From positions 420,001 to 452,000 of the forward strand of contig CAZKBG010000001.1 of NCBI GenBank assembly GCA_964551375.1: a stretch of DNA of 32,000 nt. Direction: 5' to 3'. Of the stretch, positions 18,746-32,000 are shown one piece after another. The first letter of the stretch is position 1. Each line of letters opens with the position of its first letter. This DNA is from an uncultured archaeon. GTDB taxonomy: Archaea > Iainarchaeota > Iainarchaeia > Iainarchaeales > JAAZKV01. The translations under genes and the position numbers were made by a program. Below the pieces are notes generated by a model, which saw nothing but the letters and a program-made list of their open reading frames with translations, was not told the DNA's origin and did no database searches.

Positions 18746-18818
18746 TGGGGATGCGAGGATTTGAACCCCGGTTTGACGCTCCCAAAGCGCCGGTCCTACC
18801 AGGCTAGACTACATCCCC
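18746..18818 (-). tRNA. tRNA-Pro (anticodon UGG)
   Basis: Minus strand reads GGGGATG TA GTCT AGCCTGGTA GGAC C GGCGC TTTGGGA GCGTC AAAC CGGGG TTCAAAT CCTCG CATCCCC A. This gives a full cloverleaf with G37. No CCA is encoded. Confidence 0.9.
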
Positions 18819-25827: not shown

Positions 25828-25862
25828 TACTTCCCTGGCAATATGTATGAAGGTGAGCTTTG

Positions 25863-26213
25863 ATGAGAGCAGCTTTAATTGGATTAATATTTGTAATACT
25901 CTTGATGCTAACAAGCGCAAGCTTTGCTTATTCAGGATTTAACAGATACTACTACACAGACAACTACTACCCAACAACTTACTACGCAGCACCATACGCA
26001 AACTCATACTACTACCCTACATCATATTACTACCCATCATACACATACAGCACATACTACCCAGTGGTAACTTACACAGCACCTACATATTACTACCCAA
26101 CAAACTACTACTCAGGATACACAAGCGGAGTTAGCGTATACGGAACTACAAGCTCTGGAAATTGGGGATTCTCAGTAACCAGAAGCAATTGCGGATACTA
26201 CGGATATTGTTAA
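25863..26213 (+). CDS. Secreted tyrosine-rich low-complexity protein
   Basis: Signal-peptide-like MRAALIGLIFVILLMLTSASFA, followed by YSGFNRYYYTDNYYPTTYYAAPYANSYYYPTSYYYPSYTYSTYYPVVTYTAPTYYYPTNYYSGY...CGYYGYC. It has its own TATA box, RBS and downstream hairpin. Confidence 0.65.
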   Translation: MRAALIGLIFVILLMLTSASFAYSGFNRYYYTDNYYPTTYYAAPYANSYYYPTSYYYPSYTYSTYYPVVTYTAPTYYYPTNYYSGYTSGVSVYGTTSSGNWGFSVTRSNCGYYGYC

Positions 26214-26230
26214 ACACAAGCAAAACAAAT

Positions 26231-26265
26231 CCCGCTTTGATTCTTGAGCGGGTTAACTAATTTTT
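26231..26265 (+). terminator. Hairpin followed by T-run
   Basis: CCCGCT (26231-26236), 10-nt loop, AGCGGG (26247-26252), then TTAACTAATTTTT. Confidence 0.4.
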
Positions 26266-26317
26266 AATCCTTTTCATACTATTTTTAGTCATGCAAAAAC
26301 AAAATAACTCAAAGCCT

Positions 26318-26362
26318 GATTATGAAAAACTTGGACTCAAAGCAGGACTTGAAGTTCACCAG
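26318..26362 (+). repeat. Direct repeat copy 1 (45 bp, gatE 5' coding sequence)
   Basis: GATTATGAAAAACTTGGACTCAAAGCAGGACTTGAAGTTCACCAG matches 26421-26465 at 42/45 positions. The last 30 nt are identical. Confidence 0.95.
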
Positions 26363-26413
26363 AGCCGTCACGCCGGCTCGCGGGCGGAGTTCGCTTGCGC
26401 TCACGGGGTGAAC
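26363..26413 (+). other. GC-rich 51-nt insert between the gatE 5' repeats
   Basis: AGCCGTCACGCCGGCTCGCGGGCGGAGTTCGCTTGCGCTCACGGGGTGAAC has 37/51 G+C by hand count, in an AT-rich genome. It contains the hairpin GAGCCG/CGGCTC (arms 26362-26367 and 26374-26379; the 5' arm starts 1 nt before the insert). Its 3' end GGTGAAC (26407-26413) is both the gatE Shine-Dalgarno sequence and the complement of GTTCACC (26354-26360). Confidence 0.8.
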
Positions 26414-26417
26414 TAAA

Positions 26418-28310
26418 ATGGATTACAAAAAACTAGGACTCAAAGCAGGACTTGAAGTTCACCAGCAGCTTGATACTGGAAAATTATTCATTAGAACGCC
26501 AAGCATATTAAGCGATGAATTTGACTTTACAATAGAAAGAAAACTAAGGCCGGTTCCGTCAGAGCTTGGAGAATATGATAAAACCGCAATTGACGCATTC
26601 AAAAGAAATGAAACTTTTTACTACTCGGGAAAAAAAGAAAATATTTCACTGGTGGAGCTTGATGAAGAGCCGCCGCAGCCAATGGATAAAGAAGCGCTAA
26701 AAACGGTTCTTGAAGTATCATCACTGTGCAATTCAACTATTGTGAGCAAAATAATTCCAATGCGAAAAACTGTAATTGACGGAAGCAACACAAGCGCATT
26801 TCAAAGAACAGCATTAATTTCTCTTGGAGGACACTTTGATATCGAAAGCGAGGATGCAAAAGGAAAAAAATCCAAAAAAGAAATCAGCGTCCAAACAATA
26901 CTCCTTGAAGAAGACGCTGCAAGGCCAATAAAGAAAGAAGCTGGAAAAATATACTACAACCTTGATAGACTTGGAATTCCATTAATTGAGCTTGCAACAG
27001 GCCCTGATATTAGAACTCCAAACGAAGCAGTGCTTGCAGCTGCAAAAATAGGGGAACTAATGAGAATAACTTGCAAGGCAAAAAGAGGAAAAGGAACAAT
27101 AAGACAGGATGTGAATATTTCAATCGCAGAAGGGGCAAGATGCGAAATAAAAGGGTGCCAGGAACTTGAACTAATCAGAACAGTTGTGGAAAAAGAAGTT
27201 GAAAGGCAGATTGATTTACTGGAAGTAAAGAAAAAGTTAAATTCAAAATACTCCAAGACAAAAGACAAAACCAAAATATTCGGCGGGGCGACTGATTTAA
27301 CTCAAACCCTGAAAAACACTGAATGCAAATTTGTGAAAGGAAAAACTACTTTTGGAATTAAAATTGAAAATGCAAAAGGACTGCTTGGAGAAAAAGTGGG
27401 GGCTAAGCGATTTGGAAGCGAACTAAGCGCATATGCTAAAGCAACAGGCGTAAGCGGACTCATCCACATAGACGAACTCCCAAATTATGGAATCACTGAA
27501 AAAGAAGTTGAGCTAATCGCAAAAGCGCTTGACTGCAAGGCAGAAGATAATTTTATTTTAATAGTGGCTGAAAAAGAAAGAGCTCAAAAAGCATTTGAAG
27601 CTGTGAAAGAAAGATTCTTAGCCGCGTTTGAAAAAGTCCCTAATGAAACGCGCGGAGCGCTTGAAGACGGCTCAAGCGAATACCAAAGACCGCTCTCAAG
27701 CGAGGCAAGAATGTACCCTGAAACTGATTTGCCGTTTGAAATTATCACAAAAGAAAAACTTGCTGAAATTAACAAAGGCTTGCCAAAAAGCGTAATTGAA
27801 AGAGAGAAAGAATACGCTAAAATGGGATTAAGCACTAACCACGTGGAAGAAATGAAATTATCCAATTATGCAAGATTTTTTGAAAACGCAGTGGCAAAAG
27901 GAATAAATCCAAAAACAGGCGCAAGCACACTGCTTCAAACACTTACCGAACTCAAAAGAAAAGGAATTGAAGTTGAACGAGTAAGCCTTGAAGAAATTGA
28001 AACTCTGCTGCTTGCTGAAGCCAAAGGAAAAATACAAAAATCCGCGCTTGAAGAAGCAATTATTGAACTTTCAAAAGGAAAAACAACAAGCGAAATACTT
28101 TCTGAAAAGAAAACTGCAAAAGTCGACACTAAAGCAGCTGAGAATAAAATTGCTGAAATTGTGAACAAAAATATTGCGCTAGTAAGAGCAAAAGGAATGG
28201 GTGCAATCGGACCTTTAATGGGAGATGCTATGAAAGAACCTGCTCTGAAAGGAATTGAAGGCAAAATCTTAAGCGAAATGCTTAGAAAAGAAATAAGCGC
28301 AAACAAATAA
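26418..28310 (+). CDS. gatE: Glutamyl-tRNA(Gln) amidotransferase subunit E
   Basis: N-terminus MDYKKLGLKAGLEVHQQLDTGKLF is characteristic of GatE/GatB. At 630 aa, it has the archaeal GatE-size insertion and a C-terminal helical tail domain. Confidence 0.92.
   Translation: MDYKKLGLKAGLEVHQQLDTGKLFIRTPSILSDEFDFTIERKLRPVPSELGEYDKTAIDAFKRNETFYYSGKKENISLVELDEEPPQPMDKEALKTVLEVSSLCNSTIVSKIIPMRKTVIDGSNTSAFQRTALISLGGHFDIESEDAKGKKSKKEISVQTILLEEDAARPIKKEAGKIYYNLDRLGIPLIELATGPDIRTPNEAVLAAAKIGELMRITCKAKRGKGTIRQDVNISIAEGARCEIKGCQELELIRTVVEKEVERQIDLLEVKKKLNSKYSKTKDKTKIFGGATDLTQTLKNTECKFVKGKTTFGIKIENAKGLLGEKVGAKRFGSELSAYAKATGVSGLIHIDELPNYGITEKEVELIAKALDCKAEDNFILIVAEKERAQKAFEAVKERFLAAFEKVPNETRGALEDGSSEYQRPLSSEARMYPETDLPFEIITKEKLAEINKGLPKSVIEREKEYAKMGLSTNHVEEMKLSNYARFFENAVAKGINPKTGASTLLQTLTELKRKGIEVERVSLEEIETLLLAEAKGKIQKSALEEAIIELSKGKTTSEILSEKKTAKVDTKAAENKIAEIVNKNIALVRAKGMGAIGPLMGDAMKEPALKGIEGKILSEMLRKEISANK
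26421..26465 (+). repeat. Direct repeat copy 2 (within functional gatE)
   Basis: GATTACAAAAAACTAGGACTCAAAGCAGGACTTGAAGTTCACCAG. See copy 1. Confidence 0.95.
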
Positions 28311-31669: not shown

Positions 31670-31742
31670 TAGCCCCTCCCAGATTCGAACTGGGGTCCTA
31701 GGCTTCAAAGGCCTATGTCCTTAGCCGCTAGACGAAGGGGCT
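31670..31742 (-). tRNA. tRNA-Gln (anticodon UUG)
   Basis: Minus strand reads AGCCCCT TC GTCT AGCGGCTAA GGAC A TAGGC CTTTGAA GCCTA GGAC CCCAG TTCGAAT CTGGG AGGGGCT A. Full cloverleaf. No CCA is encoded. Confidence 0.9.
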
Positions 31743-31869: not shown

Positions 31870-31943
31870 GGGCGGTTAGCTTAGCTGGTTGGAGCACACG
31901 ACTGATAATCGTGCGGTCGGGAGTTCAAATCTCCCACTGCCCA
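31870..31943 (+). tRNA. tRNA-Ile (anticodon GAU)
   Basis: GGGCGGT TA GCTT AGCTGGTTG GAGC A CACGA CTGATAA TCGTG CGGTC GGGAG TTCAAAT CTCCC ACTGCCC A. Full cloverleaf. TATA-like TAATATAA lies about 37 nt upstream. Confidence 0.9.
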
Positions 31944-32000
31944 CTATTTTATTCAGCATTCTTAAATTTCCAAGTCACTTCTCTTGCAATAACCATAATG

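Follow-up and report, generated by a model that had tools for sequence, protein, structure and literature searches.

How can a gene be read when its first codons occur twice, with a GC-rich segment between the two copies? The question is raised by gatE, the gene for subunit E of the Glu-tRNA(Gln) amidotransferase, in a DPANN archaeon of the Iainarchaeota/Diapherotrites with a genome of 1.09 Mb in 10 contigs (GenBank assembly GCA_964551375.1). The window analyzed here is the 32,000-nt stretch at positions 420,001–452,000 of contig CAZKBG010000001.1; coordinates without a contig label (C) refer to it and to its forward strand, and handles beginning with G and L denote genomes and single loci. 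The functional gatE is full length, with 630 codons (26418–28310), and its product is 46–76% identical to gatE in 40 of the 40 related genomes searched. A repeat search and a sequence check place its codons 2–16 (26421–26465, copy 2 or X') in a direct repeat with 26318–26362 (copy 1 or X, encoding DYEKLGLKAGLEVHQ), at a period of 103 nt, with 42 of 45 positions identical and the final 30 nt the same. Between the copies lies a 51-nt insert (26363–26413) with 37 G+C, in a window of 38% G+C. A TATA-like box, TTTTTAAT (26261–26268), stands 22 nt 5' of an ATG at 26291, from which an upstream open reading frame (ORF) of 41 codons (26291–26416; MQKQNNSKPDYEKLGLKAGLEVHQSRHAGSRAEFACAHGVN and a stop) runs through copy 1 and the insert to a TAA (26414–26416) that overlaps the gatE start (ATG 26418) as TAAAATG. 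Removal of 103 nt would bring ATG 26291 into frame with gatE (127 - 103 = 24 nt). A sequence-only reading had already described the repeat, the insert, the upstream ATG behind its box, the overlapping stop and the frame restored by a 103-nt deletion, and all of these hold at the same coordinates. We consider it rather probable that the insert, here named E, is an insertion element that interrupts gatE and is tolerated by virtue of a long duplication of its target.

E recurs elsewhere in the source genome and in its relatives. The genus of the source genome is called g1 below, and 22 of its genomes were searched; g7 is another genus of the order, in another family. Element E proper spans 26363–26404 (AGCCGTCACGCCGGCTCGCGGGCGGAGTTCGCTTGCGCTCAC) and includes the 3' module GTTCGCTTGCGCTCAC; the core of the family reads AGCCG-N6-CGGCT-CGCG-GGCG, with the loop YCMMGC. 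Sequence search finds the first 25 nt of the insert at three sites of the source genome, each antisense to a tRNA and 0–3 nt 5' of the mature tRNA 5' end: beside tRNA-Ser(UGA) (E at C1:161190–161244, tRNA at C1:161247), beside tRNA-Trp(CCA) (E at C1:356047–356104, tRNA at C1:355973) and beside a tRNA-Met spanning C6/C2 (E at C6:4443–4491). A hairpin scan adds a further diverged copy at C1:401970–402025. A degenerate pattern of the core gave 32 hits in 14 of the 22 genus genomes and one hit in the reversed control. A covariance model of the 30-nt core (R1), which scores the gatE copy at 41.7 bits, detects E in 19 of the 22 genomes at 0–5 copies each (4–5 in the source genome), in all 10 sampled genomes of the family and, while many families of the order have none, in a few others, with 10 copies each in G027 and G075 (g7). 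The insert is thus not unique, and its copies in the source genome, the genus and other families bear out the earlier suggestion of a miniature mobile element or dispersed repeat. An Rfam 15 gathering-threshold scan of the window returned three tRNAs only, an E-value scan of 26200–26520 gave nothing on the insert, and our literature searches found no description of such an element. E is one of a family of ~42–65-nt GC-rich elements in the Iainarchaeota (DPANN) that is apparently undescribed.

The core of E carries a covarying structure, as the same reading had proposed when it called the insert a possible structured RNA. Hairpin 1 (core positions 1–5 with 12–16; 26363–26367 with 26374–26378 in the window) is paired in 98.7% of cells, against at most 46.5% in slid controls. 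Compensatory double changes occur at three of its five pairs (AGCCG/CGGCT, AACCG/CGGTT, GGCCG/CGGCC, AGCTG/CAGCT), and none of 500 shuffles reached its covariation score. With the g7 copies added, a second helix joins the loop to a downstream G-run (9–12 with 21–24; 26371–26374 with 26383–26386), where C11:G22 changes to T11:A22 four times. The two-helix model (1–4 with 13–16, 9–12 with 21–24) is paired in 98.4% of cells, compared with 21–45% in slid controls, and has double changes at 4 pairs in 20 cells, again a score that 0 of 500 shuffles attained. Position 20 covaries with pair 4:13, being C:G:G or T:A:A with no exception in five T:A cases, which fits a base triple or an alternative helix. 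These pairings suggest that the 24-nt core can form a hairpin, in RNA or in single-stranded DNA, and that this can extend to a compact H-type pseudoknot.

Structure of this kind could also be expected if E were a functional RNA or single-stranded DNA pseudoknot, bound by a host factor and retained where transcripts with a part in translation (tRNAs, rRNA, gatE, a ribosomal protein operon) have their leaders, trailers and introns, with its spread being secondary. The three-way covariation at positions 4, 13 and 20 argues for such a role, as do compensatory changes at the orthologous-looking gatE inserts, tRNA-Gly(CCC) intron and tRNA-Met leader, and the high G+C maintained in a 38% G+C genome. 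So does a comparison with the gatE locus L092, where E is 90% identical to that in the window, whereas the flanking codons are ~71% identical (32/45). The transcribed strand varies, however: gatE, introns and the g7 tRNA trailers carry E in sense orientation, all g1 tRNA leaders and the S28e-L24e operon of G001 in antisense. Both strands also fold about equally well and do not differ much in their G-U counts for the pseudoknot; the forward strand has the more stable folding energy in 10 of 14 tRNA-leader copies, and not in the other classes, and neither measure singles out one strand. Moreover, E is present in one and absent from another of close relatives at gatE, tRNA-Arg(GCG) and S28e-L24e, and has no Rfam match. 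On balance a host function as the reason for the existence of E seems unlikely, if well short of negligible.

The settings of E, and what flanks it there, point instead to insertion. Inside tRNA introns, at position 37/38, E is sense and starts from the second intron base, both in tRNA-Gly(CCC) (source genome, G009, G011) and in tRNA-Arg(GCG) (G009, G018, G001). At tRNA 5' ends in g1 it is antisense, and directly after tRNA 3' ends in g7 it is sense; read along its forward strand, E is in both settings preceded by a counterpart of the acceptor stem's 3' strand. The tRNA-Met leader that holds E is AT-rich in its 5' part and has its promoter further upstream. Its other settings are promoters or intergenic spacers and positions within a few tens of bases of protein-gene ends, and here direct target repeats flank E. 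They measure 17 nt at the gatE promoter of G017, 19 nt at a G004/G018 locus, 21 nt at a promoter in G004 and 23 and 28 nt at g7 loci. In the source genome, a gene on the minus strand has at its 3' end (C1:470919–471056, ~19 kb past the window end) a GC-rich insert of 72 nt with two hairpins; the perfect 33-nt repeat on either side of it (period 105) duplicates the last 10 codons and the stop. The 51-nt E in the S28e-L24e spacer of G001 lies between perfect repeats of 40 nt (45 nt with one mismatch), and that in a mevalonate-kinase-like gene of G075 between perfect repeats of 56 nt. Over all loci, gatE included, the duplications are 17, 19, 21, 23, 28, 33, 40–45, 46 and 56 nt long. The sequence-only reading had passed over both points, namely that the long repeat is a general property of E at many other loci and that E also sits in tRNA introns and at tRNA ends.

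The S28e-L24e spacer offers an empty site for comparison. G007, which is 99% identical to G001 in the flanks, has a single 40-mer and no E, and G006, G020 and the source genome are likewise single-copy and E-free there. Because the site is filled in G001 and empty in G007 at this flank identity, E in G001 appears to be a recent insertion with a duplication of ~40–45 bp; and because the insertion point is intergenic, with no gene end to rebuild, the duplication would be a property of the insertion and not a rescue of the gene. Two genes of G075 show what follows when the target is a start region. In the mevalonate-kinase-like gene, AAGGTGAA(A)TTAA-ATG and 16 codons stand on either side of E, the repeat includes the Shine-Dalgarno (SD) sequence, and the upstream ORF, MNSGIGFGKTILFGEHF-SRHAGWRALHCCFATGLNQGEIK, ends in a TGA that overlaps the second ATG as ATGA. 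A second gene (MKEFNCDLHFHG...) has a ~27-nt repeat including the SD and the ATG, and the stop of its upstream ORF (TAA) lies 12 nt ahead of the true start. From such fresh cases one sees a way in which the older structure at gatE could have come about, the start region being carried along with the duplication.

For gatE itself we surveyed 55 distinct loci from species representatives and metagenome contigs. E is present at the gatE 5' end in 8 of them, 46 are insert-free, and in a ninth interrupted locus (G014 type) the insert is another one, 109 nt long and rich in hairpins, that shares the right junction, GGTGAACTAA-ATG; the junction reads GGTGGACTAAAATG in L092 and GGTGAACTAAATG in the G014 type. 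Insert-free genes have the TTTTTAAT promoter and, 20–30 nt on, a leaderless ATG-CAA-AAA-x-GAT-TAT (MQK-x-DY). Since they keep the same promoter and leaderless start, the upstream copy in the window can be read as the ancestral gatE 5' end, in line with the earlier proposal that an insertion or duplication displaced a leaderless start. Comparison of the upstream regions turned up both insert-free relatives and other interrupted loci. In the gatE tree, the nine interrupted loci fall in 4–5 g1 subclades, each with insert-free sisters: the source genome versus G004, L070 versus G015/G016, G013 versus L076, and G018 versus G010.

The nearest insert-bearing relative is L092, with 86% protein identity over the first 261 residues and 90% identity in E and junction. 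Its repeat copies differ from those of the source genome at 13 of 45 positions and match each other at 47 of 50. The same holds more widely: identity between the two copies within a genome is 100% in G017 (46/46) and G014 (47/47), 93–96% in the source genome, L092, G018 and G008, and 81–85% in G013, L066 and L070, while repeats of different genomes have a mean identity of 80%. Copies that are more alike within than between genomes imply gene conversion between them, renewed insertion at a hot spot, or both; homologous recombination has been documented in a Diapherotrites population (PMC5905446). Periods across the interrupted loci are 79, 90, 103, 104, 107, 111, 154 and 168 nt, with 43–121 nt between the repeats. 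G017 has two E copies at its gatE locus, and in G018, G008 and G013 the duplication takes in an earlier junction and ATG. What looked like an intron in G017 gatE is no such thing: the apparent gap is a run of N, and the actual structure is an in-frame fusion of copy 1, E and copy 2.

Could the doubled start be an assembly artefact or a chimeric join? The source is a metagenome-type assembly in 10 contigs, in which such an error is conceivable. Yet the same architecture is present in independent assemblies of other studies (G008, G013, G017, G018; L066, L070, L092), which makes an artefact very unlikely, and with at least eight independent assemblies showing it in lineage-specific sequence we give this explanation practically no weight.

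Two further GC-rich features were seen at gatE loci. The gene of G011 (L161, G011:C7:29200–29500) has, mid-gene and in frame, a 57-nt GC-rich two-hairpin insert (NPAKAGAFAGRSEATASPR) that is absent from gatE of the source genome. Metagenome contigs L081 and L082 have an E variant, with the hairpin AACGG/CCGTT and an ATCTTCGCTGACGCTCGAT module, between a Tyr-rich ORF and the gatE promoter; we read it as a further insertion at the gatE locus.

How, then, is the interrupted gene translated? The earlier reading had offered two possibilities, termination-reinitiation and the melting, by ribosomes on the upstream ORF, of a stem that sequesters the SD. In 8 of the 9 interrupted loci, an ORF that begins 20–95 nt after a TATA-like box reads through the insert and stops 3–14 nt before the gatE ATG (at -4 in four loci, and at -3, -5, -8 and -14 in one locus each). 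G017 is the exception: its second copy opens with ATA, and all of the segment forms one reading frame with gatE. The gatE ATGs are preceded by a purine-rich SD-like sequence. In the window this is GGTGA (26407–26411) with a 6-nt spacer, which forms, with the TAA, the junction at 26405–26417 that has similar counterparts in relatives; GGTGAT with the same spacing precedes an operon-internal gene (L24e) in G001. Termination-reinitiation, the first of the two possibilities, fits these comparative data. The simplest reading would be a two-cistron arrangement in which ribosomes start at the old leaderless ATG, unwind E during translation, stop and re-initiate, with or without direct entry at the SD. 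Translational coupling by termination-reinitiation at overlapping stop and start codons is familiar from operon-internal genes. The TAAAATG of gatE, with an SD 6 nt upstream, resembles it; of the nine interrupted gatE loci eight have this layout, as do two genes of g7. Unlike in the usual case, the upstream cistron at gatE would be a relic, made of the old 5' end of the same gene and a translated mobile element, and the coupling is predicted from the layout.

The second possibility fared less well. The SD-bearing insert end, GGTGAAC (26407–26413), is indeed complementary to GTTCACC (26354–26360), and the minimum-free-energy fold (RNAfold) forms an 8-bp stem (26353–26360 with 26407–26414) that closes E, covers the SD and encloses two insert hairpins, at a z of -1.85, moderately better than shuffles. 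From here one could argue that a regulatory leader has been selected for: with His-Gln codons at the end of the upstream ORF, by the anti-SD, the position of the ribosome would control access to the SD and couple GatDE synthesis to the supply of Gln-tRNA(Gln). Besides the stem, the Gln codons at positions 2, 4 and 24 of the upstream ORF, an apparent compensatory change (TCCACC/GGTGGA in L092, TTCACC/GGTGAA in the source genome) and the persistence of the arrangement across species would agree with this. But an SD-covering stem forms only where the SD is GGTGA or GGTGG: in the source genome and L092, and in an imperfect form in the G014 type. G018, G013, G008, L066 and L070 are without it, and in G018 and L070 copy 1 is cut before the His-Gln codons. 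The 46 insert-free loci among 55, the same layout in unrelated genes and the small z also speak against a dedicated leader, which we find doubtful. As the SD pairs with the CACC of Val-His codons, the stem follows almost automatically, and we treat it as incidental. As a conserved regulatory device the SD-sequestering stem finds no support in these comparisons, and the gatE feature would be a tolerated insertion rather than a dedicated regulator.

The restored frame also raises the idea that 103 nt are removed as a bulge-helix-bulge intron, or bypassed by the ribosome, to give one N-terminally extended GatE from ATG 26291. E does occur in true tRNA introns, and DPANN splicing endonucleases of broad specificity have been described (PMC3239211). 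Direct repeats cannot, however, pair into the required helix: the canonical motif has two 3-nt bulges separated by a 4-bp helix, and inspection of sequence and fold showed one bulge, of 4 nt, beside such a helix, with a second canonical bulge missing. Excision of E by itself would leave no intact ORF, the period varies from locus to locus (79–168 nt), and there would be no point in keeping an SD-like sequence, a start and a close upstream stop, as 8 of the 9 loci do, if that stretch were taken out. We regard such removal or bypass as highly improbable.

The insertion of E may be pictured as follows. E would enter DNA with an unusually long and variable target duplication (17–56 bp), through an enzyme or process that may be host replication or repair; template switching during replication or repair would, as a speculation, also give an insert with a flanking duplication. 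In a genome almost free of spacer DNA, a copy would persist only where the cell neutralizes it. Such sites would be the leaders and trailers removed during tRNA processing, tRNA introns, lost on splicing, positions between duplicated promoters, and positions within a few tens of bases of the end of a gene, which the long duplication would make whole again. At gatE, E would have landed after codon 16–24 of a leaderless gene, and the duplication would have recreated codons 2–16 downstream, with a start codon and an SD that lie, or evolved, directly before the second copy. gatE would now be the second cistron of a mini-operon: ribosomes would start at ATG 26291, pass through E, stop at TAA 26414 and re-initiate at ATG 26418, or else load directly on the GGTGA SD. 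The arrangement is presumably old enough to be common to L092, at 86% protein identity, and related lineages are without the insert.

The long repeats invite one more account, in which a larger element with an integrase gene integrates site-specifically at tRNA genes and at the 5' end of gatE; the 45-nt copies would be its attL and attR, and E the part left, like a cis-mobilisable remnant, once the interior had been deleted. tRNA genes are classical targets of integration, and E stands beside some of them; for archaeal tRNA genes, disruption through an integrating element with a recombinase gene has been proposed (the Caldiarchaeum tRNA disruption model; PMC3293823). The 102-nt insert of G008, moreover, opens like E and closes with a related GCTAACACTCAC module, the stretch in the middle being AT-rich. 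Against this, no locus has a large element between the repeats (43–121 nt only), and the repeats differ in sequence and length at each locus (promoters, 3' ends, spacers), unlike a fixed att core. The source genome contains a single XerA-like recombinase and no partial tRNA copies, the end of C6 simply overlapping the start of C2 by 55 nt in the E/tRNA-Met region. An att remnant is accordingly very unlikely in our judgment.

Several observations weigh against a tolerated insertion element as well, beginning with the enzyme. Domain searches of the source genome found no IS200-type (Y1) TnpA, TnpB or reverse transcriptase (RVT_1), and its one XerA-like tyrosine recombinase (Phage_integrase search) lies 281 kb away. 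DDE transposases (DDE_Tnp_1) occur in 7 of the 22 genus genomes and Cas1 in 2, neither tracks E, and five DDE transposase loci hold no E core; the genus genomes are 62–93% complete, so that absence of an enzyme is not proven. One E-core pattern had no exact match in viral contigs, and the copy number in g1, at 0–5 per genome, is low. A single clean filled/empty pair is documented, and its empty site in G007 lies at a contig break with a 55-nt overlap. At gatE the inserts share a 3' module, reading frame and similar junction; a single origin with many losses and repeated hot-spot insertion cannot be separated there, as the tree and the junctions would fit both. E positions also seem orthologous across species in the tRNA-Met leader, the tRNA-Gly(CCC) intron and gatE, and together with the compensatory changes at these positions this could mean selection for function in place, and not only selfish persistence.

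If E is an insertion element, it differs from those we compared it with. Rickettsia palindromic elements (RPE), reportedly described by Ogata et al. in 2000, are short, non-coding, hairpin-forming dispersed repeats of a reduced genome that can sit in protein genes and be translated. Other small bacterial palindromic repeats or miniature inverted-repeat transposable elements (MITEs) are Correia/NEMIS, BOX and the repetitive extragenic palindromic (REP) sequences. Like RPE, E is a short dispersed hairpin repeat in a reduced genome, stands also next to RNA genes and would be translated in protein genes (the in-frame fusion in G017 gatE, the in-frame GC-rich hairpin insert in G011 gatE). Unlike RPE, MITEs and REP sequences, it has target duplications of 17–56 bp instead of none or 2–10 bp, a pseudoknot-capable core, a GC-rich sequence in an AT-rich genome and copies in tRNA introns, and no partner transposase was found. 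E shares with MITEs its multiple dispersed short non-coding copies, but inspection of the copies gave no convincing terminal inverted repeats (the left end is sharp, the right end variable), the short fixed-length duplication of MITEs has no counterpart in E, and no cognate transposase turned up in the genomes searched. The insertion sequences IS1634/IS1549 make variable direct repeats of 8–514 bp, with no mechanistic model, and their family is found preferentially in Euryarchaeota (PMC2266710). The target duplications of E are likewise long and variable; these insertion sequences, however, are 1.5–2 kb long with a DDE transposase, whereas E is ~50 nt long and DDE genes are absent from the source genome and from G001, which has the fresh insertion.

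Mobile archaeal tRNA introns form the other comparison (reviewed in PMC4090602). As with these, related E sequences occur in introns of different tRNAs and are present or absent between close relatives; unlike them, E also lies in tRNA leaders and trailers, promoters and protein-gene ends, with target duplications. The tRNA-Arg(GCG) gene illustrates the turnover (loci L056, L058 and L198–L205), being intronless in 7 genus genomes, including the source genome (C2:96550–96622), and having an intron at 37/38 in 10 others. E-type introns are found in 3 genomes (type A in G009, L056; type B in G018, L058, and in G001) and an AT-rich hairpin family in 5 (G017, G019, G021, G002, G013); G020 has a 51-nt intron of a further type, and the intron of G003 is known only from a split BLAST match. 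This distribution indicates what appears to be rapid intron gain, loss or replacement. For archaeal tRNA introns at large, a 2026 census of Asgard tRNAs explicitly left open the route of intron arrival (bioRxiv 10.64898/2026.10.13.758758). Tentatively, and with a good deal less assurance than for gatE, we suggest that E may represent a new class of archaeal insertion element, transposase-less or using another enzyme, with a pseudoknot core, abutting tRNA-like ends and making 17–56-bp duplications, and that the same process could create or replace tRNA introns and split protein-gene ends.

The gatE locus would be an example of selfish insertions tolerated in a genome that has hardly any DNA to spare, in that the duplication rebuilds the gene end and translation restarts behind a relic ORF. 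E also connects small palindromic repeats, the structured leaders and trailers of tRNAs, and fast-changing tRNA introns, three subjects that are usually kept apart. If the link to intron gain is true, it would give a testable, experimental route into the arrival of archaeal tRNA introns. For the annotation of DPANN genomes there is a warning, as short ORFs that duplicate first codons and GC-rich islands by tRNAs would be signatures of E, and not assembly errors or new genes.

Some observations on tRNA genes and neighboring features were made along the way. A second repeated intron family (CCCTTTTCTTT...AAAGAAAAGG, then GTTGCCCAAAAGAAA) occurs in tRNA-Thr(CGU), Glu(CUC), Asn(GUU), Cys and Arg(GCG), with sites in the source genome at C1:178371–178521, C2:2173–2321 and C2:39707–39886 and in the tRNA-Cys of G009 (L050). 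The source genome has two quite different tRNA-Trp(CCA) genes (C1:355973–356043 and C1:504054–504124), of which the GC-rich one has E on its upstream side and an E-like variant (GAAGCG-TTTCGC-CGCTTC...) immediately on its downstream side. Close to tRNA-Leu(UAG) (C1:394097–394150) there is a variant of similar kind. A GCGAAG/GCAAAG motif, often in a small hairpin, stands 15–35 nt 5' of many tRNA genes of the source genome, in a survey that included the regions upstream of the tRNA genes in the window (18746–18818, 31670–31742 and 31870–31944), and its reverse complement CTTCGC is a conserved motif of E 3' modules. Contigs C3, C7 and C10 have 57–59% G+C, against 38% elsewhere, and may be contamination. 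In the window, between gatD and gatE, lies a Tyr-rich ORF of 117 codons (25860–26213) that ends in ...CGYYGYC before its stop. Endings in ..GYYGYC, ..YYGYC or ..IYGYC and a stop are found just 5' of the gatE promoter in many relatives, and the ORF looks like a conserved small secreted or surface protein.

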